Position numbers and translations under genes: made by a program. 64,000 bases of DNA from an uncultured delta proteobacterium (GTDB lineage Bacteria > Desulfobacterota > Binatia > UBA9968): NCBI GenBank assembly GCA_963727625.1, contig CAVSHR010000005.1, positions 1,024,001-1,088,000 of the forward strand. The letters are read 5' to 3'. This document shows, piece by piece, positions 10,041 through 60,678 of this stretch (within the stretch, counting starts at the first letter, position 1; each line of letters starts with the position of its first letter). Under the pieces are notes generated by a model. That model did not search any database, was not told the origin of the DNA, and saw only the letters and a list, made by a program, of their open reading frames with translations.

Positions 10041-11710
10041 TTTCTTGTCCCCCAGGTCCGTAGGAATGCAACGATGGATGAAATTTCCGAGTCCGTCAGG
10101 GCTCCTTGCACCGTTGAGCTCGTACCGAAACCGCCCATGGAGGTTCCGGCGCGGCCGCTTTGAATCGTCTTCAAAAGATAGGTATCCGTGGCGAGATCGA
10201 GAAAGACGCGATTGTTGAGCGCCGGCCCTTCCTTGCCCTCGCCGCGCTCGCCATGGCATCGGGCGCAGGCCGAGGCAAACAAACGCTGCCCTTCGGCCGC
10301 ATTGCCTTCAATCCAGCGGCGCGGTTTAGCATCCCCTTCAAAGGCGATCCCGCCGAGATCGCGAATGTAAGCGACGAGCCGAACGATCTCTGCATCGCGC
10401 AGCCCGCCTTCCAACTCTCCCCAAGCCGGCATGCGTCGCCCCGGCCGCCCCCGCTTGATCTGCTCGCGCAAGAAATCGTCGGAAACCAGACGCAGAAAAT
10501 CCCGGTTTCCGATAGCGGGAAACGGGGCTAAACCGGGGTAGCGCATGCCTTCGCCTCCGGCGCCGTGACAGGCCGCGCAGAAAGTTCCATAGAGCGTCGC
10601 CCCGTCCGTAGCGAACTCGCGCAAACCGAAGCGCTCGGCGCGAATGCGGTCTTTAGGCCAAAGCGCTTCGTAAAAGTTCCGCCGCCGCAAAGACATCATA
10701 TACAAGGTCAGCCGATCGATCTGTTGGTCGCCCAATCCGAGCTCGGGCATTGCCGAACCGCGCACCACCGAAGCGGGAGCGCGGAAATGATCCTTGAGCC
10801 AGTTGGCGAGCGTGCGTGCTCCTTTGACTGAGCTGAAATCGAGCTGTCCGGGATCCTTGTTACCCTCGGCGGTCAAATCCGGCCCGTCATCCCCGCCTAC
10901 GCCGCGAACTTTATGGCAGCCGCGACAGCCGAGAGTATGAAACAGCGCTTTGGCTTCCACTAAACCCGGGGCGCCGACACGAGAGCGAAGATATTCATCC
11001 AGCTCGGCTCGTTCCGCCGCTGAAAGCTCGCCAAAGGCCGAAGTCCATGGTCCGAAAGCTGCCTTTTTCTTTTCGCCGAGGTGAACATCGTACCAATCAG
11101 CCTTAAATCCGGTCGCGCCTACCCGCGAGAGATCCGGTCCCTCCCCACCTCCGGCACCGCCAGGACGCAGCGTTCCGCCCCTTCCGTCCAGCTTGTGGCA
11201 CGCGAGGCAATCGGCTTGTTCGAAAACTCGTTTGCCGTTTTCGAGACGAGCGAGGTTGGGAACGCTCAGGTGGGTGTGGCATCCGCCACACCCGGCATAG
11301 AGATATTTTTTTTCCAGCATCGGCTCCGGCCAATACGGCACCGCGCCATGCGCCGCCGCCGTTTCGGTCGCCCTTCCCTGGCCGCTGTGACAAACGGTGC
11401 AGCCGTAAGCGGCCGGATCGTGGACCACATCCGGATGGCGCCCGAAGAGTCGATCGCCTTCGATGCCGTTTTCACCCGGCGCCATCCCGACGTGACAACT
11501 CACGCACCGGTCCGTCGCTTCCAGCTCACGGCTGACAATCTGCCGCAGTTGAATCGTGAAGGCGTCGGCCTGGGACGCCGGCAGCTCCGCTTGTATGCGC
11601 CGCTGGATCACGCGCCAGTCGCGGAAGAAATTCTCGCTGACGGCGGCCCAAACCAGCACCGCCAGCGCCGCCAGGCTTGACCACAGGAGCAGATGTTTGT
11701 TCGCCTTCAT
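10037..11710 (-). CDS. Membrane-anchored multiheme cytochrome c (7 CxxCH)
   Basis: CVSCH, CTVCH, CGGCH, CLACH, CRGCH, CAACH, CARCH; N-terminal TM helix; ATGA overlap with nxrA. Confidence 0.92.
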
Positions 11711-45236: not shown

Positions 45237-45330
45237 GGTGCCGCAACGCCGCGGCTGAAGGGAAACGCAGATCAGACAACCGAATCACCGATATCAAAAG
45301 TAAAGACCTGACCAGGGGCCGGACCGCTTC

Positions 45331-45370
45331 GGACTATCTCAGAAGGCTAGAACTGATCAACTCCAGACCC
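45331..45370. mobile_element. Isolated RAYT-element end without a transposase gene
   Basis: ggactatctcagaaggctagaactgatcaactccagaccc is nearly identical to 49896-49940. Confidence 0.8.
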
Positions 45371-45664
45371 TAATTCTTGATTCTGCTTGACGAATCCTTG
45401 TCAAGAGATGAAACCAGGGTCATGCCGGGACATTTAGGGCAGGCTTCTCTTCCGCCAAAGTCAACGACGAGCACGAGAAGACCAAAAAGTGTTGACCATC
45501 CTTTGCGTCGAGTGTAATTTACACCCGGAAAAAATGGTCTTCGCCGCTCCGTGGCCCTTAGTCAGCTTGGTAACAGCAGGCGATAGCACCTTCACGATCG
45601 GATGATTCTTTCACGGCTATGGGGGTCAATAGCCATGAACGCGTCAGAGAAATGGTGGTGACCA

Positions 45665-47074
45665 ATGATTTTTAAAAAATTACACCGCTTCACAAGCCCG
45701 ACGCGATCGATGCTTCGGGTATTTGCACTAGGCATCGCTATTGGCGCAATCCCCTTTTTTGTTAAACCAAGTACGTCAAGCCCGCCGATACTTCCCGACA
45801 ACACACCTTTTTTTAATTCCAGCGGTTTTGCCGTTACGCTCAACACCAATGGTCCCATCGATTTATCAAATGATTTTTTTCAAACTCTTGGAACCAATGG
45901 CCGGAGCTGCTCCACCTGCCATAGGATCCAGGCGGGATGGACAATCACACCGGAAGATGTCCAGGCTCGGTTCGAAGCTACCGGAGGAGCAGATCCTATC
46001 TTCCGCTTGAACGACGGCTCGAACTCTCCCAACGCCGATGTGTCTACGATCAGCGCGCGCCGGCAGGCTTATAGCATGCTTCTCAGCAAAGGACTGATTC
46101 GCGTCGGGATCGGCATTCCTGAGAACGCAGAGTTTGAGCTAGCGGCGGTGGATGATCCATATCAATTCGCGAGCGCCACCGAGCTGTCGTTGTTCCGGCG
46201 TCCCCTGCCCTCTACGAATTTAAGATTTTTGAGTACTGTTATGTGGGATGGACGCGAGACCTTTACGGACAAGACGATCCACTTTGATCTGCGGAGCCAG
46301 GCCGACCATGCCAATCAAGGCCATGCTCAAGATCCGAATCCGCTGACGGATGCGCAGCAAGAGAGCATCGTGAACTTTGAGACAGCGCTTTTTACCGCTC
46401 AAGCGTATGATAATAATGCCAAATCCTTGATTGCTGTCGGAGCTCAAGGTGGACCCAGGCAATTGTCTTCCCAGGATTTCTATATCGGCATCAATGATCT
46501 TTTTGGCGATAGCGTGACGCAAGAGCCTTTTTCTCCGATCGTTTTTACTCTTTACGACGCCTGGAAGGACTTGGCAGGCGGCATCAGTAATGCGAGGGCG
46601 GCGGTTGCTCGCGGTCAGGAATTATTTAATACCAAATTGATCAAAATCACCGATGTGTCAGGCATTAATGACGAGGCGGCATTCGGCAATCCTGCCGTGG
46701 TCAACGGAACTTGCACGACGTGTCACAACAGTCCTAATGCAGGAGATCATTCTGTTGCCGCGCCGCTCAACATCGGCATCGCGGATGCCGGTCGGCGGAC
46801 ACCTGATATGCCTCTTTATACTTTACGAAACAAGGCTACCGGGGAGACGATCCAGACGACGGACCCCGGACGAGCGTTAATCACCGGAAAATGGAAAGAC
46901 ATCGGCCGCTTTAAAGGTCCTATTCTCCGAGGACTCGCCGCGCGAGCTCCCTATTTTCATGACGGATCGGCAAAGGACCTTGAGAAGGTTATCGATTTTT
47001 ACGATCAACGTTTCGGTATAGGCTTTACCGAGCAAGAAAAGAGTGACTTGATAGCCTTCTTGCGAACGTTGTAA
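45665..47074 (+). CDS. Exported diheme cytochrome c (cytochrome c peroxidase/MauG superfamily)
   Basis: CSTCH, CTTCH, MWDGRE, DPGRALITG, FKGPILRGLAARAPYFHDGS. Confidence 0.88.
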   Translation: MIFKKLHRFTSPTRSMLRVFALGIAIGAIPFFVKPSTSSPPILPDNTPFFNSSGFAVTLNTNGPIDLSNDFFQTLGTNGRSCSTCHRIQAGWTITPEDVQARFEATGGADPIFRLNDGSNSPNADVSTISARRQAYSMLLSKGLIRVGIGIPENAEFELAAVDDPYQFASATELSLFRRPLPSTNLRFLSTVMWDGRETFTDKTIHFDLRSQADHANQGHAQDPNPLTDAQQESIVNFETALFTAQAYDNNAKSLIAVGAQGGPRQLSSQDFYIGINDLFGDSVTQEPFSPIVFTLYDAWKDLAGGISNARAAVARGQELFNTKLIKITDVSGINDEAAFGNPAVVNGTCTTCHNSPNAGDHSVAAPLNIGIADAGRRTPDMPLYTLRNKATGETIQTTDPGRALITGKWKDIGRFKGPILRGLAARAPYFHDGSAKDLEKVIDFYDQRFGIGFTEQEKSDLIAFLRTL

Positions 47075-47114
47075 GCGGATCGAGGGGTGGCTAAGGGGTC
47101 AAGTATGGAGTTAG

Positions 47115-48936
47115 GATTCTGCTGAAAAACCCTCTTGTAAATTGTTTTTGACTAGCGAAGAAACGAATCATCGTTGAAAAAGTGAGTGGCAGTCTTTAAT
47201 TTGCATACATGAGCGTACAACGCATGGATTCACAGCGGAGTTTTTATCACACGAGTTTTGTTTGCGGCGAGCTGTTCGGTGCGGCCGACCGATACCGGCT
47301 GTTTCGGGAAAAGATATTTCCTCAGCTCTTAGCGCTTCGAGTGGCAGTTAGAAACGCTTTACTGCGAGAACAATGGTCGGCCGGCGATCGATCCGGTGCT
47401 TTTGTGCGGGGTGACGTTACTGCAATTCATGGAGAAAGTGGCGGATCGAAAAGCAGCCGAGCAAGTGGTCTATCATCTGGGCTGGAAGTACGCCTTGGAC
47501 TTGGAGCTACCCTACGAAGGCTTTCATCCGACAGTGCTGGTTTATTTTAGGGATAGGTTGGAGGAGAAAAAGGCTGCCCGGGTGGTGTTCGACGGGATTG
47601 TAGATTTATTGATCGAACTGGGACTGATCAAGCGGGCGGGCAAGCAGCGCATCGATAGCACCCATATCTTAGGCTACGTCAAAGAGATGAGCCGATTGGA
47701 ATGCGCGGCAGAGACGATACGCTTGGCGTTGGAGGAGTTGGCCGGAGTGGTTGCCAGCAAGCGGCCAGTGTTCTGGGAGAGGCTATGGTCGCTGTACGTT
47801 CAGAGCGAAGTGGGATGGCGGTTGAGCAAAGCCGAGCGCCAAAGCCGTTACCGCCAATGCGGCCAAGACATCATGGAGCTATTGGAGTGGATCGACAACC
47901 AGGATGGCAAGCTTGGTGAGATTGAATCGGTGAAACTATTGCGCCGGGTGTTTGAGGAACAGTTCGAGGTCATCGAGGGCGCCATCCAAACGCGCCGCAC
48001 CCGGCCGTCACGATCGGTGCAGAATCCCCATGATCCTGGTGCCCATTACGCCGACAAGGGGACCAAGCAGTGGACTGGCTACAAAGTCCACGTGGTGGAG
48101 AGCGTCGATCCAGAACAGCCAGCCAAAGTCAAAGCCGAGCCCGGCGAGCATTTTATTACCGAGATTTTAACCACCGAGGCGGCCGAGAACGAAAAGACCG
48201 GTTTGGCCGAAGCGCTCAAACGGCAACAACACCACCACGAGATCAAACCCCAGGCGATCTACGCCGACGCAGGTTATGTGACCGAGAGCACTTTGTCGCA
48301 AGCCGAAGGCAACGCGATGGAACTTCTCGGGCCGACCCGTCCCGATCCCCACAAAGGACCGTATAATGCCGACGGGTTTGTTGTCGATGTGGAGAACCAG
48401 CGGGCGGTGTGTCCCCAGGGAAAGACCAGCACTCAATGCAGCCACATCAAGGATAGCTACATGGGCAGCGAGTACTACCGTCTGGAGTGGGGTAGCCAAT
48501 GCGACGGCTGTCTTGTGCAAAAACAATGCACTCGCGCCAAGAGCGGACGCAGAATCCTGGTAGTTGGCTTACGCCACGATCTGGTCGAGAGGCGGCGCAA
48601 GGAAATGAAACAGGCGGAGTACTCCGTAACCATGCATCCCAGAAACGGGATCGAGGGAACCCATAGCGAGTTGGTGCGAGGCCATGGGCTGCGACGAACT
48701 AAATATCGGGGTTTCAACCGAGTCACCCTGTCGCATTACTTCATGGGTGCGGCCTGCAACGTGAAACGATATTTAAGACGGCTGGCATTCCAGATCGAAT
48801 TGGCCACTCTCACCCCGGCGTAAGAGCAAAGAATGAGGGTTTTTCACACCTACGGCACGCAGCGATCAAAATTATCACTGGCACAACTACAGCCACCGAT
48901 CAATCACTTTTTACAATGGGGTTTTTCAGCAGAATC
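47115..48936 (+). mobile_element. IS1182-family insertion sequence with 26-bp TIRs and 7-bp target duplication
   Basis: TIRs gattctgctgaaaaaccctcttgtaa / ttacaatggggtttttcagcagaatc; GAGTTAG at 47108-47114 and 48937-48943. Confidence 0.9.
47209..48823 (+). pseudogene. IS1182-family DDE transposase, frameshifted near 47340
   Basis: MSVQRMDSQ...LALR then a frame change to QLETLYCENNGRPAIDP; IDSTH, GYKVH, YADAGY, CP.G, RNGIEGT. Confidence 0.85.
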
Positions 48937-48939
48937 GAG

Positions 48940-49887
48940 TTAGCTAATCCTCACCACCATCTTTTCAATCCGATCTCTGAGTTTTTTGTCCTTGGCCATC
49001 TGAGATTCTATCGCACGGCAATTCCAACTCACCGTCGAATAATTTCCGATTCCAAAGTATTCCGCCATCTCAGGCAACGTCCGATCACAACAGCGCTTCA
49101 CCAAGTACAACGCCACTTTCCGCGCCTCGTTCTCCCGGCCCCTTATTCCGCGAAAGATCTCCTCCCGCGCTACCTTGTACTGACGCACAACTTCGTTGAT
49201 CACACGCTCCGGTCCCATTTCGACGACCCGCCGCTCATAGCGGGGATGTTCCCGTGCGGTCGGCGCGCCTAAAACTCTGAGCCGCTCGATGAACGCTTCA
49301 CTGCCGAGGATCGGACTCCGACGCTGCGATTCATAATACTGCTTAAGCGACTCCTCGTTTCCCGATAGCACAAACTCGTGAAACGGCTGTCGCCCTCCAA
49401 GCTGTTCCAAGGCCGGGGTGGTATCGAGCCAGCCCGGCGCTCCTCTGGCCTGAACATAATACCGGTGGCTCGCCCACGGATAATCCTCGGGCATCTTGAC
49501 CCATCCGGCCTCTACCGCGTTTAAATGAATATAACGGACCACCGCTGCCAGATACTCATCAGCATCGATAAGAATCGCCTTATATCGGCCGCGGAACAGC
49601 GTCCCGTCGCGCCGGTGGCGGCGGTTGAATCGCTGGGTATAGATGCCGTTCAAGTGGCGCATGACTCGGGATAGATTCCCTCTCGGGGTTCTCACACAGA
49701 GGTGATAATGGTTTCCCATCAGGGAATAGGCAAAGACTTCGATGTCCCACAGCCGATGGGCTTCGGCCAGGGTGTCGAGAAAGGCTTGATTGTCGGCCTC
49801 GTCGACAAACGTGGGCTGTCTTGCCCGACCCCGGTTCATGACGTGGTACACCGCTTGGGGATACTGAATTCTTAGCGGTCGCGACAT
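48940..49887 (-). CDS. REP-associated tyrosine transposase (Y1 HUH) with C-terminal DnaA-C-like HTH
   Basis: MSRPLRI..YHVMNRG, LMGNHYHL, FRGRYKA, RYIHLN, YPWASH, ARKVALYL. Confidence 0.93.
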   Translation of the reverse strand: MSRPLRIQYPQAVYHVMNRGRARQPTFVDEADNQAFLDTLAEAHRLWDIEVFAYSLMGNHYHLCVRTPRGNLSRVMRHLNGIYTQRFNRRHRRDGTLFRGRYKAILIDADEYLAAVVRYIHLNAVEAGWVKMPEDYPWASHRYYVQARGAPGWLDTTPALEQLGGRQPFHEFVLSGNEESLKQYYESQRRSPILGSEAFIERLRVLGAPTAREHPRYERRVVEMGPERVINEVVRQYKVAREEIFRGIRGRENEARKVALYLVKRCCDRTLPEMAEYFGIGNYSTVSWNCRAIESQMAKDKKLRDRIEKMVVRIS

Positions 49888-49940
49888 GCGCTTAGGACTA
49901 TCTCAGAAGGCTAGAACTAGTCAACTCCAGATTTGAACCC

Positions 49941-50136
49941 TCAATTCCGCTGCAAGCTCGGGTTGAAGGGTAACTATCCCGATGATGATGGAGAAAATAC
50001 CGAAGAACCTGCTGAAAAAACTGCCCTTCTTTTTCTTATGCCGATGGAAATACCCGTCGGGGTCAATGTAGTTCTGGGGATTGTTGACGACGTAGCTGTA
50101 GCGGTTGAGATTCTGCGGATCGTACGGCGTTTGGAC
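49941..50136 (-). pseudogene. Third RHS cassette remnant truncated at the RAYT1 end
   Basis: VQTPYDPQNLNRYSYVVNNPQNYIDPDGYFHRHKKKKGSFFSRFFGIFSIIIGIVTLQPELAA, then the RAYT end. Confidence 0.85.
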
Positions 50137-50219
50137 ATGAAGGTTTCGGTTAGGTGGGAGACGACGACAAGTTAGGCAACTTGGGCAAGTCCGGCACCTG
50201 CGTGCTTCGTATTTGCTGG

Positions 50220-50639
50220 TTACGACTGTCTGTTACGATCAACCCTCGCGCACATGCCGTAGGCGACCATCGCAACTATTGTGGAAAAAAAGAAGCTCCA
50301 CAAGAATATAGCTGCTCCTTGATGTAACAGCAGAAGACTCACTGGAATTACTGGCGTGACGGCCAGAGCAGCAAGGCGTGGATGCCTCTCAACAAAACCG
50401 TACGGCAAGACGAGCGACAATACGCAATAAACAATTGAACCCAACACCACTGGGACCACAAAAAGGAGATACATGTACGCCGCGCTACCTAAAAACCATA
50501 ATAAGGTGTCACTACCCGGTGCACCTCGGAGCCTGAGTTCAAACTCCAGCGCAACCAAAAACACGGGCAAAAACACCACCGCCGCCATGAAGGCGTTCCA
50601 AAGGAACATCGATATGAGTTTCCGCCACTTCACTATCAT
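50220..50639 (-). CDS. Four-TM membrane protein, putative immunity for the orphan RHS tip
   Basis: Hydrophobic; ATGA overlap with the upstream toxin stop. Confidence 0.7.
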   Translation of the reverse strand: MIVKWRKLISMFLWNAFMAAVVFLPVFLVALEFELRLRGAPGSDTLLWFLGSAAYMYLLFVVPVVLGSIVYCVLSLVLPYGFVERHPRLAALAVTPVIPVSLLLLHQGAAIFLWSFFFSTIVAMVAYGMCARVDRNRQS

Positions 50640-52252
50640 TGCGTTCCAACCGTTACACTACCGCAAATTCCTGTGAGGCATATGGGATTCGACTCCCGGC
50701 TCCGAAACAAGAACTGCGTTGATCCGCCTACGGTCCGCGTAAGCTCAAAGGAAGGGAACGGGTCTATGACGCCTCGGGCGAGAATGCCCCCCGAATTTGC
50801 TGTAATCGAGAGGTTAAAGTCTATTGCCGGACCAATGCCGAACGGATCAAAAGAATTTCGAACAGCACCGCTCAAACCCACCGTGTTTCCTCTTACCCCA
50901 ACGTTTACTATATTACCTTGGCCAATTGTCAAAGCAGACCTGCAGACTTGAACTGCTGCGGCACATGTAGGGTTGACCTGAAAAGTGCCAGATCCCGTCT
51001 CAAAATCGAGATTGAAAAACGCGCGGGACCGAGTGGGATTTGGAGCAGGATCAAAATCGCGCGCATCTCCCCGAAGACCAAGGGCGGCTGGGGACCCAAT
51101 GAAGAACTCGCCTCGCGCCGATCCGGCACCAGGAACTACTGGAATAGGAAACTTGATCAACACAGGACTTGCTCCGCAAAAATCGTCTCCTGCACGGCAG
51201 CTCGCGAGGCCAGAGAACAAGTCAAGAGACCCGTCCGGAGCCGCGGCGGACAAGCCCCGGTTTTGAAGGTCCGACTGGATACCGGCGAGCGAGTGGCCGA
51301 TGTCGCCCAGCGCAAACGCCGTGCCCAAACCGAACCCGAAATCCGCTCCCGGCGGTAGCCCCGCCGCGATAAAGGCAAGGTTAAAAACGATGCGAAAGAT
51401 TTTTCCAAAGATGCTGTTAAAGAACCCGCCCTTTTTCTTATGCCGATGGAAATACCCATCGGGGTCGATGTAGTTCTGGGGATTGTTAACGACGTAGCTG
51501 TAGCGGTTGAGATTCTGCGGATCTAGCGGCGTCTGGACGAAGGGATCGGCGGACACGAACCGTCCGGTCTCGGCGTCGTAGTATCTTCCCCCGTAATAGT
51601 AAAGCCCGCTCTCGGGGTCGAGCTTCTGGCCGGTGAACCGGTGGGTTGGGTCGATCGTGCCCTCGGTTCGGGAAACACTGCCCCAGGGATCGTATTCGTT
51701 GAGCTGAACTCGGGTGCCAGCGATGTCGGTGATGACATTGACGCTGCCCAGGTGATCGTTGTGGTAGAAGTATTTGTTTGTTCCTCTTTTTGAAGCGAAG
51801 TTTTCGATCCCAATTCGGATAAACTTCGTGATCACTCCGTTGGGATCGATCTCGTAGCCGGCAAAGGGATAAATGGTGGTGCCACCCGGGGCATTCTTTT
51901 TTACGCGCACACCTGCATAGTCGTACTCCATCGACGTGCTGCCGCCGCCGGCGATGGCAATGCTGCTGACCCGGTTATCAATATCCCAGGTCAGCGTCTG
52001 GTTGCCTCTGGCGAGCATGTTGCCGTTGGCGTCGTAGCTGTAGTTTTTGCTCAAGCCCGAATGATTGGTGACCGCGGAGGGATGGTTGGCGTCGCTGTAG
52101 CTCAGCACCGCCCCGCACTTGTCGGTGAGATTGCCGATGGCGTTGTAGGTGTAGGTGCAGTTCTGCTGGGACTGATTCGTCCCGAAGGTGCCGGAACCAC
52201 TGATCATCCGGTTGAGATCGTCATAACCAAACGTCCGGCTTGCCGTGAACAA
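50636..52252 (-). CDS. Orphan RHS core + alternative C-terminal toxin cassette (no native start)
   Basis: RHS core translation identical to the main gene, YYGGRYYD...NPQNYIDPDG, different C-terminus. Confidence 0.85.
   Translation of the reverse strand: MFTASRTFGYDDLNRMISGSGTFGTNQSQQNCTYTYNAIGNLTDKCGAVLSYSDANHPSAVTNHSGLSKNYSYDANGNMLARGNQTLTWDIDNRVSSIAIAGGGSTSMEYDYAGVRVKKNAPGGTTIYPFAGYEIDPNGVITKFIRIGIENFASKRGTNKYFYHNDHLGSVNVITDIAGTRVQLNEYDPWGSVSRTEGTIDPTHRFTGQKLDPESGLYYYGGRYYDAETGRFVSADPFVQTPLDPQNLNRYSYVVNNPQNYIDPDGYFHRHKKKGGFFNSIFGKIFRIVFNLAFIAAGLPPGADFGFGLGTAFALGDIGHSLAGIQSDLQNRGLSAAAPDGSLDLFSGLASCRAGDDFCGASPVLIKFPIPVVPGAGSARGEFFIGSPAALGLRGDARDFDPAPNPTRSRAFFNLDFETGSGTFQVNPTCAAAVQVCRSALTIGQGNIVNVGVRGNTVGLSGAVRNSFDPFGIGPAIDFNLSITANSGGILARGVIDPFPSFELTRTVGGSTQFLFRSRESNPICLTGICGSVTVGTQ
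51260..52251. repeat. ~992-bp direct repeat of 54513-55504 (RHS core)
   Basis: Constant offset of 3253 at both ends; identical translations. Confidence 0.92.
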
Positions 52253-52263
52253 GGGGTCGGGAA

Positions 52264-53279
52264 GGGGTCAAGTATGGAGTTAGCTAATCCTCGCCACCAT
52301 CTTTTCGATCCGATCTCTGAGTTTTTTGTCCTTGGCCATCTGAGATTCTACCGCACGACAATTCCAACTCACTGTCGAATAAGTTCCGATGCCGAAGTAT
52401 TCCGCGATCTCAGGCAAGGGCCGATCGCAACAGCGCTTCACCAAGTAAAGCGCCACTTTCCGCGCCTCGTTCTCCCGTCCCCTTATTCCGCGAAAGATCT
52501 CCTGCCGCGCTACCTTGTACCGACGCACGACTTCGTTGATCACACGCTCCGGTCCCACCTCGACGACGCGCCGCTCATAGCGGGGATGTTCCCGTGCGGC
52601 GGGCACACCTAAAACTCTAAGCCGCTCGATGAACGTTTCACTGCCGAGGATCGGACTCCGACGCTTGGACTCATAATACTGCTTGAGCGACTCCTCGTTT
52701 CCCGATAGCACAAACTCGTGAAACGCCTGTCGCCCTCCAAGCTGTTCCAATGCCGGGGTGGTATCGAGCCAACCCGGTGCTCCTCTGGCCTGAACATAAT
52801 ACCGGTGGCTCGCCCACAGATAATCCTCGGGCATCTTGACCCATCCCGCCTCTACCGCGTTTAAATGAATATAACGGACCACCGCTGCCAGATACTCATC
52901 GGCCTCAATGAGGATCGCCTTATATCGGCCGCGGAACAGCGTCCCGTCGCGCCGGTGGCGGCGGTTGAATCGCTGGGTATAGATACCGTCCAAGTGGCGC
53001 ATTACTCGGGATAGATTCCCTCTCGGTGTTCTCACACACAGGTGATAATGATTTCCCATCAGAGAATAGGCAAAGACTTGGACGTCCCACAGCCGATGGG
53101 CTTCGGCGAGGGTATCGAGAAAGGCTTGATCGTCGGCCTCGTCGATAAACGTGGGCTGTCGTGCCCGACCCCGGTTCATGACATGGTACACCGCTTGGGG
53201 GAACTGTATTCTCAAGGGACGGGACATGGATATGAACTATCAAAGAAGGAGGGAACTAGTCAACTCCAGATTTGACCCC
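52264..53279 (-). mobile_element. RAYT element 2 with 18-bp imperfect inverted ends
   Basis: GGGGTCAAGTATGGAGTT ... AACTCCAGATTTGACCCC. Confidence 0.85.
52280..53227 (-). CDS. REP-associated tyrosine transposase, second copy
   Basis: 315 aa, collinear and highly similar to 48940-49887. Confidence 0.93.
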   Translation of the reverse strand: MSRPLRIQFPQAVYHVMNRGRARQPTFIDEADDQAFLDTLAEAHRLWDVQVFAYSLMGNHYHLCVRTPRGNLSRVMRHLDGIYTQRFNRRHRRDGTLFRGRYKAILIEADEYLAAVVRYIHLNAVEAGWVKMPEDYLWASHRYYVQARGAPGWLDTTPALEQLGGRQAFHEFVLSGNEESLKQYYESKRRSPILGSETFIERLRVLGVPAAREHPRYERRVVEVGPERVINEVVRRYKVARQEIFRGIRGRENEARKVALYLVKRCCDRPLPEIAEYFGIGTYSTVSWNCRAVESQMAKDKKLRDRIEKMVARIS

Positions 53280-53340
53280 CAATTGCCCCCAATTGCCTCC
53301 CAATTGCCTCCTGACCCCAATTGCACCATTCAATTGCCAC
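53276..53340. repeat. Stuttered CAATTG microrepeats with an extra TGACCCC at the RAYT2 end
   Basis: cccccaattgcccccaattgcctcccaattgcctcctgaccccaattgcaccattcaattgccac. Confidence 0.8.
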
Positions 53341-53355
53341 ATGCTCTTTCCCCTT

Positions 53356-53922
53356 CTATCTGCTTTCCCATGAGCCGAGTCCCCCAGCGCTCCTCTCCGG
53401 CTTGTAGAGCTCAGGACCCATTATGGTACTCATTATCTTTGCAATGTCTGATGAAAAGTATAATGAAGACGTGCCGTACGACATCAATGCGCCAAGATCC
53501 TGCCCCACGCAAGGATAGTACTTGAGGTAGCCGACGCGCATCAGATCTCGATCAAACGCGAGAATGAGGTAAACAACATCGCTGGCAAAGATGTCGCAAC
53601 GTGTGTCCTTGGGAACCTCGTTTCTCGCTGCGCGGAAGAACGCTGCAATGTCCTCACGCCTCGTTGTTTCATAAACCCATGCACTAGACCGGATCTCATC
53701 TACACTAAACAGGGCATCTTTTCCCCTCTTTGTCTTGTACATCTGCAAGACATCCACAGTATCTGCCGCATCTTGCTTGGTACTCAGTGCGTAGAATTGT
53801 GAGAAGTTGAGCAAGAGGTGGGAATAAGTGGGGTCAAGAAACCACCCGCTTCCCTCCTGCTTCGAGCAGGCGGAAGCGAGCGCCAGGATCAGAAGCGCCA
53901 GAACCCGGAACTTTGACATCAT
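53356..53922 (-). CDS. Lipoprotein, putative immunity protein of the main RHS toxin
   Basis: MSKFRVLALLILALASAC lipobox; ATGA overlap with the RHS stop. Confidence 0.78.
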   Translation of the reverse strand: MMSKFRVLALLILALASACSKQEGSGWFLDPTYSHLLLNFSQFYALSTKQDAADTVDVLQMYKTKRGKDALFSVDEIRSSAWVYETTRREDIAAFFRAARNEVPKDTRCDIFASDVVYLILAFDRDLMRVGYLKYYPCVGQDLGALMSYGTSSLYFSSDIAKIMSTIMGPELYKPERSAGGLGSWESR

Positions 53923-56900
53923 CGAGGAAATCTCACTGGCCGCTGGCCGACGAATTCAATCAAAAAGTCGCGGCCGGGAAGACGTCTGCCCACAGCATTG
54001 GCGAAGCCCGGCTTGTCAAAATTGAAGGCTTCACGCCTACCTGAGACGAATCCTTCGAAAGACAAATTGCCGCTCGGATCCTTGGCGAGTGTTCCTTCGA
54101 GAAGGAGCGTTGAGGTCCCGGTGCGAAGGGAGCCTGTGTCGACCTGCAGGGACAACCTAAGTTGCCTAGCTGAACCAGGTGCAAGGTCCGCCGCAGATCT
54201 GGTGAAACCTGGGAACTGTTCGGGTTGAGCCCCCGTATCCAGACTTGAGAAAGGAACCCTAGCGATGTCAGGCCGTCCCGGTAAAGCACCGCGCATGAAG
54301 AATAAGCCAGGCAAGATCAGTGTCGTTGGTAAATCGGTACCATTTTCCTTTCCACTAATCAGCAAACGAAGAAGATCTAGTCTCGCATCCGAGCATACAT
54401 CACATCCTGCCTCCACCGCCAATTGCAAGGCCGGGCTAAAAAACCCTCCTCCACCGGCGTGACTTAGACCGGGAATTAAGGACCCGTCCGGAGGCGCGGC
54501 TGATAACCCCCCGTTTTGAAGGTCCGACTGGATACCGGCGAGCGAGTGGCCGATGTCGCCCAGCGCAAACGCCGTGCCCAAACCGAACCCGAAATCCGCT
54601 CCCGGCGGTAGCCCCGCCGCGATAAAGGCAAGGTTAAAAACGATGCGAAAGATTTTTCCAAAGATGCTGTTAAAGAACCCGCCCTTTTTCTTATGCCGAT
54701 GGAAATACCCATCGGGGTCGATGTAGTTCTGGGGATTGTTAACGACGTAGCTGTAGCGGTTGAGATTCTGCGGATCTAGCGGCGTCTGGACGAAGGGATC
54801 GGCGGACACGAACCGTCCGGTCTCGGCGTCGTAGTATCTTCCCCCGTAATAGTAAAGCCCGCTCTCGGGGTCGAGCTTCTGGCCGGTGAACCGGTGGGTT
54901 GGGTCGATCGTGCCCTCGGTTCGGGAAACACTGCCCCAGGGATCGTATTCGTTGAGCTGAACTCGGGTGCCAGCGATGTCGGTGATGACATTGACGCTGC
55001 CCAGGTGATCGTTGTGGTAGAAGTATTTGTTTGTTCCTCTTTTTGAAGCGAAGTTTTCGATCCCAATTCGGATAAACTTCGTGATCACTCCGTTGGGATC
55101 GATCTCGTAGCCGGCAAAGGGATAAATGGTGGTGCCACCCGGGGCATTCTTTTTTACGCGCACACCTGCATAGTCGTACTCCATCGACGTGCTGCCGCCG
55201 CCGGCGATGGCAATGCTGCTGACCCGGTTATCAATATCCCAGGTCAGCGTCTGGTTGCCTCTGGCGAGCATGTTGCCGTTGGCGTCGTAGCTGTAGTTTT
55301 TGCTCAAGCCCGAATGATTGGTGACCGCGGAGGGATGGTTGGCGTCGCTGTAGCTCAGCACCGCCCCGCACTTGTCGGTGAGATTGCCGATGGCGTTGTA
55401 GGTGTAGGTGCAGTTCTGCTGGGACTGATTCGTCCCGAAGGTGCCGGAACCACTGATCATCCGGTTGAGATCGTCATAACCAAACGTCCGGCTTGCCGTG
55501 AACAGGCTGTCCGTAATCGAGGTGACGTTGCCGTTATTGTCGTAGCCGTAGGCAAGATTCTGCTGGTTGTTGGAAGTGGTCCGGTTGGTAACTCTGAAGT
55601 TGGCAGCGTTGTAGGTCCAGGTGGTGGTGAGGCTGTTGGCATAGGTCAGCGCGGTCTTTTGCCCTCTGGCGTTGTACGTGACGGCGTTGATGTAACCGGG
55701 TGCGCTGCTCAGCCAGCCCGCTTCGTTGTAAGTGTAGGTGACCGTCTCACTGTCGGGGAATGTCTCGCTGGTGATGCGGCCGAGGGCGTCGTAGCTCTGA
55801 GCCATCGTATGCCACACGCCCAGAAGCTGGCGCTGGGTCTGGGTGGTTCTGCCGAGCTGATCGTAGGCAAATTTCGTCGTGGTCGCCTGATCGACGATCT
55901 GGGTCACCCGGCCTTTCGAATAGGGCACCGCGGCATCGTCATAGGTCCAGGCGACTAGGGTCGTGCTCCCCTGCTTTTTGGTAAGCGGACGGCCAAGGGA
56001 ATCGTAAGTAAACGTCAGTGTCTGGTTTTTGGCGTCTTTCTGGGTCAGAAGGTCGCCGGCTAGATTATACGTGTACACCCAGGCGCCGGGCGTGCTGGTG
56101 GAACATGTTGTCAGACTGGACGCCGTGCCCATGTTGGGGTCGCACATGGCGATCTTGCGGCCCAGATAGTCATACGCGTTCAGGGTGTTGTGGCCGGCGT
56201 TATTGGTCACTTTGGTCAAAGAATCCGCCGCGTCGTACTGGTAGGTCGTAAAGTAAGACGCGCCGCTGTTGACTTCCTCGACCTGGATCACCCGGTGATG
56301 GGAATCGGTGTAAGTCCGTTTGATCTTTCCTCGCGGATCGGTGGCAATCACTTCGTGATGATCGTAGGCGGTCTGCGCGTTGGTGCCGTCCGGGAAATTC
56401 ACCCGCGTCTGCCGCCCGAGTACGTCGTAGAGGAATTCCGTCCAGACGGCTGTTTCAGTCGTAAAACGCGGCGCCGAGGTCCTCCACTCAAGCCCCCGGC
56501 TGTCAAAGAAAGTTTCGCTGACGATGGCCTGGCCGCCGGGTCCTTCCTGCGCAGATTGATAGTTCCGGCCCAAGCCGTCGAAGTACGCCTCGCTCGATAT
56601 GTAATTGCCCGTGCCATGCTGCTCGGTCCGATAGGCGGTTACCCGCTGCAAGCTGGGATTACCCCAGTTGAGATAGAACGTGCTCACGGTTCCATAGGTC
56701 GAGCTGCCGTCGAGCGGGCCGGTAATTTTTGTTACCCGACCAAACACATCGTAAGTTGAGGTCGTCGTCTGATTGTTGGCATCGGTCTGGCTGGTCATGA
56801 CGCCGAAGCGCTCGTCATATGCCATCGTGCTTTGATGATTGAGGCAGTTGGTAACGGTGGAGGGAAATGTTTGGCTGGATTCAAAGACAGTGGCAGTCGT

Positions 56901-59237
56901 GCAGCTCCGCGCGTCGGTCACCGACGTGCGATTGCCGTACGCGTCGTAGCTGTACGTAACCGTCGGGTTGCCTGCGTTTCCGATATTGCCGGCTAAGCGC
57001 GATTCTTCTTTTGTGACCAGGCCCCGCGTCCCGAGTGCGCCGTAAGCGGCGTTGTCGTAGTAAATCCAGCGCTCGCGCACCGTCGCCCCGGTGTTATCGA
57101 GGAGCGCCGTTCGCTTGGGGCGGTGAATCCAGTTGGCACTGTCAACGATCCATTCGGTGACTTCGGTTCTTTCATCGCCCGTGGTGGCCACGTCGCCCAG
57201 ATCATTTTTCTGGGTCGGGTTGCCGTTAGTGTCGTAGGTGAACGTCTCGGCATTTTGGTGGCAGGTGGCCTGGCCTTCGCACTCGTAATAGTCCGTCCGT
57301 GTCAGCGCCACGAAGGTTACGCCGGTGTAAGGATTCGACGTGGTAAAAGTGTTGACGACTTTGTTGTAGAGGGCGCCGGCGGCGCTGCGCGTTTCGATCT
57401 GGTAGGGGCGGCCCTTCTTGATGTCGTCTTGGTAAAACCATGTATCGGTGTAGTTGCCGATGGGATCGATGGCGCGGACTTTGGCGTGGCCGCGAAATTC
57501 TTTGCGATCGGCGTTAACCGCAGGGTTATAGTAGGTGAAGTTTGTGGTCGAGCTCCAGCCGAGCCCATCGCTCATCGTGCGGCTAATAACCCGGTGTCGT
57601 GTGCGGTCTACTTCTCCCGGGCGGACATAACCATGCAAACTCCCGCCACAGTTTCCTGGACCGCTGGTGGAAAATCCGACGAAGTCACAGTTGCTGTTAA
57701 AATCCTCGTCCCAAACGTCATAGAGCGCTACCGCATCGAGCACGTTTGAAGTATACGGGTAGCCATGCAGACTCCCGCCACAGTTTCCCGGACCGCTGCT
57801 CGACAGTCCGGCGAAGATGCAGTTGCTATTAAAATCCTCGTTCCAAACGTCATAGAGCGGAAGTGTGCCGGCTGCGCTTGACGTCAGCACAACGCCGTGC
57901 GAAGTCCACTGACACTCAGTGTCGGTACGAGTGTCGGTCAAGCCGCTGAAAACACAGTTGCTGTTAAAGTCTTCGTACCACACGGAATAAAGCGACTTGA
58001 TCTCCTCGTAGGCGAAACTCACCGATCCGCCGATGCCGTTGGTGGCGCTGGCTAGCACCGTGCCGACATAAGTAAAGGACCGGGGCGGTAAGGCGGAGGT
58101 TCCGTCACTGCCGATCGGCGTGACGCTTGTCAGCGTGAGATCGCCGGCGGCGCCGCCTTGCCAGGTTTGGTTGGGGTCACGGTCAATCGAGTAGTCGTAT
58201 CCGAAATTGTACCGACGCACCAAGCTATTGCCGACGCGGACCTCGATGGCATCGAGGCGGTAAAGCTGGTGATAAGAGGTGTGCCAGTCCGGACTGGTGT
58301 CCTTCCAGTCGGTTCGATTGCCCCGAATAAACGTCACCGTGCGGCTGTTGCCGACGAGCGAGCCGGCGTAGTAGGCATAAGTGATGGTATCGGGATAGAC
58401 CGCCTGATCGTAAGCCTTGTTGTTGTAACTTGAGCTTTGCTTGAAGTAGCTATATCGGACGGAAACGCCGCTGGTTGTCGAAACCTCATCGACGAAATAA
58501 CGAAAAGTGACCGGCACTTCAGTGTTGAGCGCGAAGGTGAGCCCCGTGGCGCGGCTGTTGGAAGTATAGCCGAAGCGGTGTGTGGTTCCGTCTTTGGTCC
58601 TTACCGTCCAGTAATCGCCGCTTGAAAAATAGTTGATCTTCCAAAACGTTTCATCCTTGGTCCGATAGCTTCCGCTGCCGATAGACACCAAATCATAGGT
58701 ATGACCGCCGAAGACGAGCTTGAAGCTGTCGTCCGACGTGCTGGTTGAACCTTTGGTATCTCGAACGATGAACCCACCAGTGTCCAGGCTCCAGCCGAGG
58801 CCGGTCCAATCGGCTTGATCGCGCTCGCTGTTGTTGCCCATGTCATCAACAACGCCGCTGTTGTAATTGAGCAAGATCTTCGGCGCGATGCCGGCCGCTC
58901 CTGGCGGAACCAATATTGGAATCTCGGCGCCGGCTGAGCCGGTGAAAAGATCGGCCTGGAAGGATTGAATATTAAAACCATCGACTGAGGCGCCGAGACC
59001 CGCCGTTGCTGCGCTAGTCGTAACGGTTGCACCTGGCTTGGTCGGTTTCTTGGTTGTTTGGTTCGCGGCACTCGACGCGGCTGATGTTGTTTGAGTTGAA
59101 CTTGCGCTGATATGCGACGCCTCTGAAGAAGATTGATCAACAATTGCTATCAGGAATATTAGGGCCGCCACTTGAAATAGATGGGAGAGCATAGGTTGTT
59201 GCGAGATTGAAAAAGTTCCAAGCCTGTGAGTGATCAT
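53919..59237 (-). CDS. Secreted RHS/YD-repeat toxin (SpvB-like N-terminus, colicin-M-like C-terminus)
   Basis: Signal peptide, DLFTGSA..IPILVPPG..G.GWSL, many YD repeats, RHS core with DPDG, variable tip. Confidence 0.92.
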   Translation of the reverse strand: MITHRLGTFSISQQPMLSHLFQVAALIFLIAIVDQSSSEASHISASSTQTTSAASSAANQTTKKPTKPGATVTTSAATAGLGASVDGFNIQSFQADLFTGSAGAEIPILVPPGAAGIAPKILLNYNSGVVDDMGNNSERDQADWTGLGWSLDTGGFIVRDTKGSTSTSDDSFKLVFGGHTYDLVSIGSGSYRTKDETFWKINYFSSGDYWTVRTKDGTTHRFGYTSNSRATGLTFALNTEVPVTFRYFVDEVSTTSGVSVRYSYFKQSSSYNNKAYDQAVYPDTITYAYYAGSLVGNSRTVTFIRGNRTDWKDTSPDWHTSYHQLYRLDAIEVRVGNSLVRRYNFGYDYSIDRDPNQTWQGGAAGDLTLTSVTPIGSDGTSALPPRSFTYVGTVLASATNGIGGSVSFAYEEIKSLYSVWYEDFNSNCVFSGLTDTRTDTECQWTSHGVVLTSSAAGTLPLYDVWNEDFNSNCIFAGLSSSGPGNCGGSLHGYPYTSNVLDAVALYDVWDEDFNSNCDFVGFSTSGPGNCGGSLHGYVRPGEVDRTRHRVISRTMSDGLGWSSTTNFTYYNPAVNADRKEFRGHAKVRAIDPIGNYTDTWFYQDDIKKGRPYQIETRSAAGALYNKVVNTFTTSNPYTGVTFVALTRTDYYECEGQATCHQNAETFTYDTNGNPTQKNDLGDVATTGDERTEVTEWIVDSANWIHRPKRTALLDNTGATVRERWIYYDNAAYGALGTRGLVTKEESRLAGNIGNAGNPTVTYSYDAYGNRTSVTDARSCTTATVFESSQTFPSTVTNCLNHQSTMAYDERFGVMTSQTDANNQTTTSTYDVFGRVTKITGPLDGSSTYGTVSTFYLNWGNPSLQRVTAYRTEQHGTGNYISSEAYFDGLGRNYQSAQEGPGGQAIVSETFFDSRGLEWRTSAPRFTTETAVWTEFLYDVLGRQTRVNFPDGTNAQTAYDHHEVIATDPRGKIKRTYTDSHHRVIQVEEVNSGASYFTTYQYDAADSLTKVTNNAGHNTLNAYDYLGRKIAMCDPNMGTASSLTTCSTSTPGAWVYTYNLAGDLLTQKDAKNQTLTFTYDSLGRPLTKKQGSTTLVAWTYDDAAVPYSKGRVTQIVDQATTTKFAYDQLGRTTQTQRQLLGVWHTMAQSYDALGRITSETFPDSETVTYTYNEAGWLSSAPGYINAVTYNARGQKTALTYANSLTTTWTYNAANFRVTNRTTSNNQQNLAYGYDNNGNVTSITDSLFTASRTFGYDDLNRMISGSGTFGTNQSQQNCTYTYNAIGNLTDKCGAVLSYSDANHPSAVTNHSGLSKNYSYDANGNMLARGNQTLTWDIDNRVSSIAIAGGGSTSMEYDYAGVRVKKNAPGGTTIYPFAGYEIDPNGVITKFIRIGIENFASKRGTNKYFYHNDHLGSVNVITDIAGTRVQLNEYDPWGSVSRTEGTIDPTHRFTGQKLDPESGLYYYGGRYYDAETGRFVSADPFVQTPLDPQNLNRYSYVVNNPQNYIDPDGYFHRHKKKGGFFNSIFGKIFRIVFNLAFIAAGLPPGADFGFGLGTAFALGDIGHSLAGIQSDLQNGGLSAAPPDGSLIPGLSHAGGGGFFSPALQLAVEAGCDVCSDARLDLLRLLISGKENGTDLPTTLILPGLFFMRGALPGRPDIARVPFSSLDTGAQPEQFPGFTRSAADLAPGSARQLRLSLQVDTGSLRTGTSTLLLEGTLAKDPSGNLSFEGFVSGRREAFNFDKPGFANAVGRRLPGRDFLIEFVGQRPVRFPR
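57625..57992 (-). repeat. Three ~44-aa Cys-containing intragenic repeats in RHS
   Basis: LYxVWxEDFNSNCxFxGxS..GPGNCGGSLHGY, 132-bp spacing between repeats 2 and 3. Confidence 0.85.
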
Positions 59238-59366: not shown

Positions 59367-59700
59367 GAATCGATTCCGGCCCGTTGCCTTTGGCGGGGGA
59401 ATTAGGCGGAGAGAAGCGGACGAAATAATGAGGCTTGCAGCAAGAAATTTAAATTGTTGCCCAATCGAAATAACGCAACCTTGGTTGCATCTCGTGTCAA
59501 CCAGGATTGCGGATATGTAAACCAGAGTTGCTCCAGTTTATCTGCCTTCATTTTGCAACTTTCGAAACTTTCACGACTCGGGAGTCGGTTCCTCTCTATT
59601 TACGGGTTGGTATGACATTTGCGTTTTTGTGCGGGCAAAGTCCGAGGTTGTTCAAATAACTTGCAGAAATATTCATAGTCATCGTGAAGGAAATTGTGGC

Positions 59701-60678
59701 ATGACTCTCGATAGAATTCGATTATTCATTTGTGTCGCTAAGAATCGGAGCATTAGCCAGGCGGCACGCGAGCTTGGCATTAGCCAATGCGCGGCCTCCC
59801 GTAAACTGCAACAGCTTGAAGTCAAGGTTTCCTCCAAGCTGTTCGAGAGAAAAGGAGGCGGCATGGAACTGACCGCTTCGGGTCGGACGTTTCGGCATGA
59901 AGTCTCGTCGCTCTGGTCACAGTTTGAAGAGTTGGAGAAAAGATATACTCCGAGCCGAGATTCTCTCACCATCGCGGCCAGTCATCGTCCCTCGAAATAC
60001 CTACTGCCGAGGCTAATGATAGAGTTTAGTAAAATGCGTCCTTCGGCGAAATTGACTTTACTCACCCGGAGCAGCGTGGAAATTGAGAAACTGCTGTTGG
60101 AGTCCAGAGTTGATCTCGCGATCACCAACAATGTTAATATGTCAGGTACGGCCTTTTTCACCGAGCCCTATTCTAGCGAGCCACTAACCGCATTCGTTGC
60201 AACGAGCCATCCATTGGCGAAAATGAAATTTGTGCAAGCGTCGAACGTGGGCACGGTTCCGCTCATCGTCAAATGTCGACGCGAGGGTGAAAGCAGGGTT
60301 GAGGCACAGCTGGGAAAATTTGAGAAAGGAGGAATGAAATTCAAAGTCGTGATGCGCTGCGAGTCTCCCGACGTGGTCAAGGAATTTGTCAGACACGGGG
60401 CGGGTGTAGGGATCCTGTATTATGATTCAATCAAACGGGGAATAGAGCGTGGGGAATTTAATGCGATCCAATTCCCACGGTTCGATCTCAAGGGGCAAAA
60501 TTACATTGTTTACTCCAAGGACAGGCCGCTCTCCCCTCTGGCACGGGAGTTTCTATCGCTGCTGCGCGCTTCGGTGGCGCAGAATGCGCCGATCAAACCG
60601 ATGGTGCCTCAGATCTCGTACCGACGCGACAACGGTGGGGCACGGGATCACATTCTCCGATCCAAACTTCTATACTGA
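59701..60678 (+). CDS. LysR-family transcriptional regulator
   Basis: [29 protein letters not shown]....LFER HTH, substrate-binding domain. Confidence 0.93.

Follow-up and report, generated by a model that had tools for sequence, protein, structure and literature searches.

TIRYT transposons at the borders of RHS toxin/immunity cassettes and their possible part in the displacement of RHS tips

Introduction

TIRYTs and TIRtrons were described by Di Nocera (2013; PMC3733652), and TIRYTs correspond to TnpA-Y1 subclass 2.1 (Quentin 2018; PMC6006769) and to RAYT Group 1 (Bertels 2017; 10.1101/119735). According to the sections of this literature drawn on here, TIRYTs share with the locus described below a Y1 HUH core, a Bac_DnaA_C-like helix-turn-helix, a length of about 315 aa, GGGGWSAS inverted repeats in place of REPs, and several copies per genome. 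They are widespread, yet no mechanism is described for them in the portions of the literature examined; in the searched text of Di Nocera (2013) and Quentin (2018) neither a mechanism nor the word "Rhs" was found, and the sections covered do not report flank stutters, long flank duplications or RHS enrichment, all three of which were seen here.

The gene order of the locus resembles that of Rhs C-terminal displacement (Jackson 2009, PMC2935791; Koskiniemi 2014, PMC3967940), in which, as the relevant sections describe it, orphan core fragments carrying different tips and immunity genes come after a full gene. A circle that enters through a single crossover accounts for that order, as it would here. 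In those sections the circle arises when existing cores recombine, and the origin of the first orphan core or circle is left open by Jackson (2009), in whose consulted text the word "transposase" does not occur; what differs here is that the orphan starts are set by a transposon end. A comparable process was described for effector/immunity arrays of the T6SS as homology-facilitated illegitimate recombination (Kirchberger 2017; PMC5361080). In the portion of that paper used, one end is anchored by homology, the other is joined without homology and the old immunity gene is kept downstream, as here; no integrase or other enzyme for the non-homologous end was known, whereas the present locus offers a candidate enzyme and a site at that end.

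Rolling-circle capture by ISCR/IS91 in complex class 1 integrons (PMC7707992) is the best analogue of how the elements would work: in the sections consulted an HUH enzyme moves neighbouring genes as a circle, which is rescued by homologous recombination, and a duplicated segment is left at the element end, as may be the case here. The enzyme subclass itself has been proposed as a diversifier of another antagonistic gene family with a conserved N-terminal and a variable C-terminal part, the prochlorosins, by Laurenceau (TnpA_REP subclass 2.1; bioRxiv 10.1101/2020.03.09.984088), in which the genes are in facing orientation, inverted repeats were not detected, indels account for the diversity and, according to the authors, a causal link is not established. 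Unlike that case, the breakpoints here are defined by terminal inverted repeats (TIRs). ISCR elements have oriIS/terIS ends and a much larger enzyme; they also differ from the present elements, which have symmetric TIRs and stutters, in carrying resistance genes as cargo. With integrons the locus shares a cassette array in which the newest cassette would stand in front and the older ones be pushed back, but it has no tyrosine recombinase, attI or attC, its junction positions vary, and the enzyme gene lies between the cassettes and is repeated.

Results

Layout of the RHS locus

The array order and coordinates proposed from a sequence-only reading of the window (the whole 64,000-nt stretch analysed) held up on re-analysis: a full RHS gene with its immunity gene is followed by a first transposase gene ("RAYT2"), an orphan RHS with immunity gene and the start of a third cassette, and a second transposase gene ("RAYT1"). 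The full-length RHS/YD-repeat protein (53919-59237, minus strand; 1772 aa) gave weak SpvB and TcdB_toxin_midN matches in its N-terminal part and ends in tip 1 (53922-54347, minus). Putative immunity gene 1 (53356-53922, minus; 188 aa), whose role is suggested by its position, encodes a lipoprotein-like N-terminus. Short tandem "stutter" copies of flank and end (53280-53330) lie outside the left TIR of TIRYT2 (53258-53279, minus). The TIRYT2 gene (52280-53227, minus; 315 aa, Y1_Tnp and Bac_DnaA_C) is closed by the right TIR (52264-52285, plus), with a 12-bp stutter at 52252-52263.

The orphan RHS (50636-52251, minus) was said to start at the RAYT2 end, and RHS homology does begin 12 bp outside the right repeat. 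Its core part (51228-52251, minus) copies RHS positions 54481-55504, about codon 1244 to 1587, over 1024 bp at 99.5% identity; 992 of the 1024 bp are free of mismatches, and all five mismatches fall within 51241-51259, beside the switch to tip 2 (50636-51227, minus). The two RHS copies lead into different tips. Putative immunity gene 2 (50220-50639, minus; 139 aa) encodes a hydrophobic protein. A 28-bp non-TIR motif (50171-50198), which also precedes two orphan cassettes at a paralogous locus, stands before the third cassette (49942-50149, minus), which consists of an RHS core end (DPxG; 85% identical to the other two cores over 50000-50149) and the start of a tip. This cassette indeed breaks off at TIRYT1's left end, where the repeat (49919-49941, minus) is degenerate.

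The TIRYT1 gene (48940-49887, minus; 315 aa) is 93% identical to TIRYT2. The cytochrome gene was correctly placed behind it, but an IS1182-like DDE element between the two (47115-48936, plus; ORF 47396-48823, 37-bp inverted ends, 7-bp target duplication) had been missed. It is inserted in the right inverted repeat of TIRYT1, the outer part of which remains at 47095-47114 (plus; stutter at 47083-47094), and this accounts for the 1.8-kb gap. The di-haem cytochrome c peroxidase-like gene (45665-47074, plus) lies between this right end and a gene-less solo left end with leader, both of the TIRYT1 type (45325-45376, minus), which is 93% identical to the left end of TIRYT1 over 45325-45367. A further TIR-like end (45294-45314, minus) resembles the ends of other TIRYT subfamilies.

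RHS cores, tips and immunity genes

Both RHS copies in the window scored above the TIGR03696 cut-off, and the features of RHS polymorphic toxins are present: YD repeats, a DPxG core end, a variable tip, a small downstream gene and orphans. Tip 1 has 31 homologues, several of which form the C-terminus of RHS proteins; Pfam Colicin_M was matched by 5 of the 12 homologues scanned (best E 5.7e-19), and a low-confidence predicted structure (pLDDT 44.7) ranked syringacin M first (E 0.089). Through these homologues, tip 1 is probably a colicin-M-like toxin domain. Domain searches gave no family match for tip 2 or either putative immunity gene, and a PDB sequence search, the Atlas (scores under 0.9) and a longer-protein search identified no tip. 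At another locus of the source genome (L002), a fragment 89% alike to tip 2 lies with its own immunity gene, a 76% homologue of immunity gene 2, between two other TIRYTs.

Identity of the transposases and their ends

Both window transposases matched Y1_Tnp (E 1.6e-13 and 1.9e-14) and, above the cut-off, PF08299 (Bac_DnaA_C; E about 1e-9). The residues H60 and H62 (HUH) and Y119 are invariant among the 14 copies aligned and intact in TIRYT2, and TIRYT1 and TIRYT2 differ by 40 synonymous and 21 non-synonymous codons. Their ends in the window are imperfect inverted repeats of about 22 bp. As inverted repeats they show a 13/18 and a longer imperfect match; both ends start GGGGTCAA, which fits the GGGGWSAS consensus except that its last base is A, not S. 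Judged by sequence, the elements are TIR-flanked TIRYTs (TnpA-Y1 subclass 2.1). The name RAYT in the REP/REPIN sense does not apply to them, as they are flanked by TIRs and not framed by abundant palindromic REPs: the genome contains 4-5 matches to the window end sequence, solo TIR-like matches number 21 over all families, and NCBIfam REP_Tyr_transpos scored 72 bits, below its cut-off of 80. The source genome holds 31 TIRYT matches at E<1e-10, so the gene is not single-copy. IS200/IS605 membership was rejected (17.4 bits vs 55, TIRs present, no clear target motif), as were ISCR/IS91 (no Y2_Tnp match among the ORFs of the locus, symmetric TIRs) and integrons (no IntI tyrosine recombinase Pfam match among the 11 ORFs of the locus that were scanned, and no fixed attI/attC points, the junctions falling at several RHS positions).

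Most module boundaries had been assigned to the heptamer GGGGTCA/TGACCCC. The boundary of cassette 3 with TIRYT1 and the solo end carry degenerate rather than exact motifs, and between immunity gene 2 and cassette 3 (about 50150-50200) no inverted-repeat end is present, the 28-bp motif lying there instead. As evidence of ends, the heptamer on its own is weak: it occurs 11 times in the window vs 6.0 expected, a count reached in 1 of 100 shuffles, and four of its eight matches within the array (45622, 50059, 53830 and 58173) are not ends. Stutters of 9 bp or more were found at 36/150 ends of TIR-paired elements vs 0/536 controls. None of the 75 TIR-paired elements, with ends as defined here, had a target duplication longer than 4 bp, and intact alleles showed no clear target motif at the junctions, with one in-register 3-base match in the window and none consistent elsewhere.

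Enrichment of TIRYTs near RHS genes

All five RHS loci of the source genome have a TIRYT within about 3.2 kb; these belong to three subfamilies 32-40% identical to the window's, and 22 of the 31 source-genome matches are not near RHS. In 13 relatives, 9/125 TIRYT matches lay within 3 kb of an RHS core, vs 1/120 for rve and 1/49 for IS110 (together 2/169; Fisher p 0.010), and in a sample from an independent order 13/71 did (chance about 0.6%), vs 5/300 rve and DDE_Tnp_1 among the matches listed (p 6.7e-7); the control tallies were counted by eye, kin genomes are not independent, and IS copies are under-assembled in MAGs. In the order sample a TIRYT was near 15/83 RHS matches vs 4/150 ParE (among the matches listed) and 0/60 HsdS. 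The enrichment proposed as a check on the sequence-only reading was thus seen in each of two clades when IS and island genes served as controls. Of the unselected TIRYT loci 5/37 have RHS alongside, a count that keeps L086, whose TIRYT match is a 21-codon scrap, and metagenomes gave 3/79, L134 having been dropped (from 4) because its weak match looks to be a piece of an integrase. As a cause of the enrichment, TIR-like words in RHS DNA were rejected, their density being only 1.3-2.3 times the genome's; they would be at most a minor factor in the RHS preference.

In the order sample, 50 of 63 RHS clusters, several of them multi-cassette arrays, have no TIRYT gene within 3 kb. The position after the immunity gene on the same strand was found at 17 of the 19 loci first counted, and 4 of the 13 RHS-near matches of the order sample are on the opposite strand. 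Solo repeats occupy the same slot at 4 of 14 RHS loci without a TIRYT gene. An RHS-specialised clade was rejected on a quick tree, where RHS-linked copies (28 of 144 rows) are scattered over 17 changes, at least 10 of them forced by well-supported branches.

RHS breakpoints and flank duplications elsewhere

At many independent loci, inverted repeats mark where RHS fragments begin or end. In L002, three junctions link a right end to RHS, near codons 1057 and 1254 and in the middle of tip 2, and further contigs, other genomes and metagenome contigs show equivalent right-end-to-mid-RHS junctions. At L003, a locus of the source genome unrelated to RHS, copies of a 3-HAO/phosphoesterase segment (79% identical, the second starting at the right end) enclose a 180-bp RHS core end that abuts a left repeat. 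At RHS loci 7/22 right and 4/33 left ends abut an RHS profile match. The right flank is duplicated upstream in only 7 of 50 testable elements and the left flank is repeated downstream in 8 of 50, not all of them classified, so these counts do not prove a direction. Such duplications, starting 5-13 bp from the right end, are also found at non-toxin genes. No TIR-like word was present in the 230 nt preceding 21 of 36 orphan starts (background 14.6%), and cassette 3 of the window also starts without one. None of the relatives carried the window locus with its flanks.

Discussion

What appears to be new here is the association of TIRYTs with RHS; TIRYTs themselves, Rhs tip displacement and the idea of a prochlorosin diversifier were already known. 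Our search, which did not extend to subscription papers and supplements and so does not prove absence from print, found no publication on a TIRYT/RAYT-RHS link, and RAYT and Rhs were mentioned together only in an unrelated use; in the covered part of Zhang (2012; PMC3482391) the terms RAYT, HUH and integron do not occur.

On balance we favour the reading that TIRYTs are general end-joining mobile elements which, together with homologous recombination, displace RHS tips, and that they form neither an integron nor a dedicated machine. The enzyme would be an HUH/Y1 single-strand nicking and joining enzyme with a C-terminal helix-turn-helix, surrounded by inverted repeats of ~22 bp, whose insertions are not clean, in that one end may join a site away from the flank of the other end. 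A join a few bases off would give stutter repeats, and one hundreds of bases off a duplicated gene segment. A unit of core fragment, tip, immunity gene and TIRYT, closed where the right end is joined to a position inside RHS, could then enter the resident RHS core through one homologous crossover; alternatively, the end may be joined straight into that core, with homology resolving the other side. The full-length gene would thereby receive a new tip, the old tip and immunity gene being left behind the element as an orphan, and the gene order predicted by such a displacement is the order found in the window. The anatomy, the junctions, the enrichment and the absence of a dedicated clade are observed; that the junctions are the enzyme's work, the existence of circles and the order in which the tips arrived are inferred. 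RHS loci are probably favoured because retained immunity genes are selected for and inserts are tolerated there, and these loci would exploit or put up with a general mobile element. Against this reading stand the absence of any circle or joined form among the sequences seen, the many RHS clusters without a TIRYT gene, the orphan starts that lack a TIR-like word, the lack of a clear target motif at the junctions and the small, two-way counts of duplicated flanks.

Since TIRYTs stand at broken cassette edges far more often than other IS, they may be one route to new tips. More tentatively, and short of what we would count on, TIRYTs may be an unrecognised HUH gene-capture class: in C-terminal displacement they would supply the junction made without homology (the first circle), and in several phyla they would repeatedly give rise to new RHS tips, orphan immunity arrays and displaced ends of other genes. 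With a candidate enzyme, a 22-bp site and exact junctions at the locus, the first circle of RHS displacement and the enzyme of the non-homologous end both become testable. If true, IS200/IS605 and REP/RAYT would be joined by a third HUH lifestyle, one that is near to ISCR capture, and this would bear on how soil and water bacteria renew their toxin/immunity repertoires.

It is rather doubtful that the locus is only a passive hotspot, where TIRYTs insert wherever this is tolerated, after immunity genes or in dead orphans, and where homologous recombination among TIRYT copies and among RHS cores, together with deletions, then leaves fragments ending at the repeats; on this view the element would mark scars without carrying any cassette. 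IS1182, IS110, IS21 and IS3 also gather at RHS loci, many TIRYT copies are truncated, some lie near ParE or beside IS in island regions, most RHS arrays arise without a TIRYT, and 26 of 55 scored ends lie 0.6-2 kb from the RHS match, which is the slot after the immunity gene. Yet DDE and IS110 elements, though more abundant, are near RHS 6-13 times (odds ratios) less often, and neither the RHS core end stranded at a left repeat in L003 nor the duplications beginning 5-13 bp from right ends at unrelated genes are readily explained. The integron-like diversifier of the sequence-only reading, a domesticated Y1 lineage maintained for taking up and reshuffling toxin/immunity cassettes at end motifs, appears improbable. 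It would fit the stereotyped same-strand slot, also taken by solo repeats, the multi-copy arrays at L002 and L066, the intact catalytic motifs and the synonymous excess between the two window copies; it is contradicted by varying junction positions, the lack of a constant attachment site and of a dedicated clade, the RHS clusters without TIRYTs, the majority of TIRYTs away from RHS, the opposite-strand matches and the same duplications at non-toxin genes.

A mis-join of two strains or of a repeat is a very improbable origin for the 1-kb duplication. Contigs from four read runs (shares 0.14 or less) bridged no junction, no read set bridged the locus, and the contamination estimate is 6.3%; against this, the copies run into different tips, the two transposases are 8% apart, the junction sequence is unique, equivalent junctions recur on the other contigs and genomes noted above, and exact pieces from both halves are present in soil runs X1 and X2. 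In run X3, one contig ends at 55632, where 23 loose bases resemble another TIRYT family's repeat; this is an isolated and weak hint.

Organization of the RHS array

The module order proposed for the minus strand in the sequence-only reading was borne out in the window. The RHS gene (53919-59237, minus strand, as read from the window sequence) contains three 44-residue cysteine-containing repeats in its N-terminal part (57628-57994). It is followed on the same strand by a 188-aa ORF (putative immunity gene 1); a 315-aa gene with Y1_Tnp and Bac_DnaA_C domains (52280-53227); an orphan RHS (50636-52251), the first 1024 bp of which are a copy of 54481-55504 at 99.5% identity; a 139-aa ORF (putative immunity gene 2); a third core end of 150 bp; and a second Y1 gene (48940-49887), 93% identical to the first. 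The two Y1 genes are referred to as TIRYT2 and TIRYT1, respectively, TIRYT being a Y1/HUH transposase gene framed by terminal inverted repeats (TIRs). A di-haem cytochrome gene (45665-47074) comes after TIRYT1, with a solo left end (45325) beyond it. However, an IS1182-like element (47115-48936, 7-bp target duplication) within the right end of the TIRYT1 element had been missed in that layout. The true element ends are imperfect inverted repeats of ~22 bp; the proposed heptamer GGGGTCA/TGACCCC itself is barely above chance (11 matches versus 6.0 expected in the window). No inverted-repeat end was found between immunity gene 2 and cassette 3, whose DPxG core/tip boundary codons (50059-50065) are an exact TIR heptamer.

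Tip 1, the variable C-terminal end of the RHS protein, has 31 homologues, some of them terminal in RHS proteins. Colicin_M was matched in 5 of the 12 scanned, and was ranked first, without significance, by a structure model of poor quality. Family searches with tip 2 and both small ORFs gave no match. We infer toxin roles for the tips and immunity roles for the small ORFs.

Identity of the transposases

By their sequence features, both window transposases belong to the TIRYT/TIRtron class and to subclass 2.1, as described in PMC3733652 and PMC6006769, respectively: HUH and Tyr are intact, a C-terminal HTH is present, and the repeats are of the GGGGWSAS type. Both were negative when tested as REP-RAYT and as IS200, and the earlier label "RAYT" is not supported in its REP/REPIN sense. 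Among 108 full-length TIRYT copies from all fetched DNA, a repeat pair was found in 75. None of these 75 had a target duplication longer than 4 bp, and stutters of at least 9 bp (short tandem copies of flank plus element end outside the TIR) occurred at 15 left and 21 right ends, against 0/536 controls.

RHS loci of the source genome

The source genome has 31 TIRYT matches (E<1e-10), nine of which have an RHS core no more than 3.5 kb away, and all five of its RHS loci have a TIRYT nearby. L001 is a paralogue of the window locus (LysR plus RHS, 93% over 5.5 kb) with different tips; behind its first immunity gene lies a truncated TIRYT (90% identical), and its last is followed by a solo left end. 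At L002, a different TIRYT subfamily is present in five pieces. Its right ends are joined to RHS at two positions, near codon 1057 and near codon 1254, and to a point midway through a homologue of tip 2; the immunity gene of this homologue sits between two TIRYT elements. At L003, a 3-HAO locus, a 180-bp RHS core end lies against the left repeat, and a segment occurs on both sides (79% identical), its second copy beginning at the right end. L004 has TIR-like remnants behind its immunity genes.

Several side features were also recorded. LysR lies upstream of RHS in the window (59629-60151) and in L001 (17448-18277), where it is interrupted by a 415-bp exact tandem repeat, possibly an assembly issue. 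Di-haem cytochrome genes lie behind the last TIRYT in the window and in L004 (5923-7320); tblastn found the two unrelated, and the shared placement may be chance. The IS1182-like family, with 13 ends listed in all, also lies inside TIRYT inverted repeats in L004 (8184-8320, a short copy without a gene), probably also at C14:309 of the source genome, and may prefer these repeats as targets. Three orphan RHS cassettes have a 28-bp motif in front of them (window 50171-50198; L001 ~8580-8610 and ~10300-10330), which recurs in two further intergenic sites (C4:677698 and C6:38146); it is not a TIRYT end.

Association in other genomes

RHS cores were found in 14 of 41 genomes searched. The predicted enrichment of RHS neighbours at homologous transposases was confirmed in 13 relatives, where 9/125 TIRYT matches lay within 3 kb of a core match against 1/120 for rve and 1/49 for IS110 (p 0.010), and in an independent order, with 13/71 (10/57 without G042, the genome on which this sample was centred and which was picked for having a TIRYT match). 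In that order, RHS was present in 26 of 61 genomes, and among the control matches listed, 3/150 rve (of 316) and 2/150 DDE_Tnp_1 (of 204) were near RHS (p 6.7e-7 for TIRYT versus both); the chance level is ~0.6%. These counts involve controls tallied by eye, non-independent kin genomes and under-assembled multicopy IS. Conversely, TIRYT was near 15/83 RHS matches, compared with 4/150 ParE matches among those listed (of 175) and 0/60 for HsdS. TIRYT was present in 9/20 fetched RHS loci of the relatives, and another IS in 3/20 (146 ORFs scanned). TIRYT loci fetched irrespective of RHS contained RHS in 5/37 and 3/79 cases, Verrucomicrobiota among them. In the order sample, 50 of 63 RHS clusters had no TIRYT gene within 3 kb; TIR-like remnants occupied the slot behind the immunity gene in 4 of 14 gene-less RHS loci examined. 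RHS-linked copies are scattered over the TIRYT tree (28/144 rows; 17 changes, of which at least 10 are forced), and 0/500 shuffles were as low as 17 changes, partly owing to near-copies.

Breakpoints at element ends

In RHS-selected loci, an RHS profile match was no more than 60 bp from 7/22 right ends and 4/33 left ends, and all seven of these right ends run into RHS in sense. On the other side, a TIR-like word was found within 230 nt of 15/36 orphan starts (background 14.6%), so that most starts lack one. By eye, left ends were seen to truncate RHS-like reading frames in L188, L190 and L191, solo ends were seen at L196 and L199, and a gene-less repeat pair at L198. Such MITE-like pairs of 120-140 bp lie beside RHS loci at L104 (6863-6979) and L198 (~8050-8190). 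In several members of the G042 order, short RHS core ends have a conserved ~130-bp stretch, not a TIR, in front of them (L086 16590-16790; L199 ~4370-4570; L206 ~6920-7120; L197 ~6780-6980).

Proposed mechanism and alternatives

The TIRYT-RHS association is real and replicated, with base-level junctions, and apparently unreported: literature searches found no published link. The closest claim is that of a prochlorosin preprint (bioRxiv 10.1101/2020.03.09.984088), whose authors add that a causal relationship has yet to be established. Both the class of element and the outcome of displacement were known before.

We lean, on sequence grounds, towards active end-joining with flank capture. A unit comprising the core from codon ~1244, tip 1, immunity gene 1 and TIRYT2 would enter a resident RHS gene by one homologous crossover, and its other junction would be made at the right repeat. 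All five differences between the window copies fall within a 19-bp stretch next to the tip switch, which fits such single-crossover entry; identities between the copies at L002 (93%), L003 (79%) and L192 (82%) are as expected for a unit from a diverged donor. An assembly artefact as the source of the duplication seems very improbable. Passive accumulation of elements at RHS loci, with recombination afterwards, is a lesser but serious possibility. Flank duplications were found on the right in 7 of 50 testable elements (two of the seven are RHS, three are unnamed genes, and one each is a 3-HAO segment and an IS91-type transposase), and left-flank repeats downstream in 8/50. They point to a general behaviour of the element, direction unproven.

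A domesticated integron-like system, as the sequence-only reading had framed the array, is unlikely, and that framing is not supported. By membership these are TIRYT and RHS loci, not integrons, ISCR or REP-RAYT. Active end-joining would work like C-terminal displacement (PMC2935791), homology-facilitated illegitimate recombination (PMC5361080) and ISCR capture (PMC7707992).

TIRYT was also seen next to other genes. At L014 (5877-13714), a tripartite tricarboxylate transporter cluster lies between two TIRYTs, and the right end of one adjoins a CRISPR array next to cas genes. At L130 (1-3950), the sequence after the right end repeats the conserved end region of a large protein encoded upstream, which has no Pfam match; the arrangement looks like displacement in what may be a non-RHS polymorphic gene.
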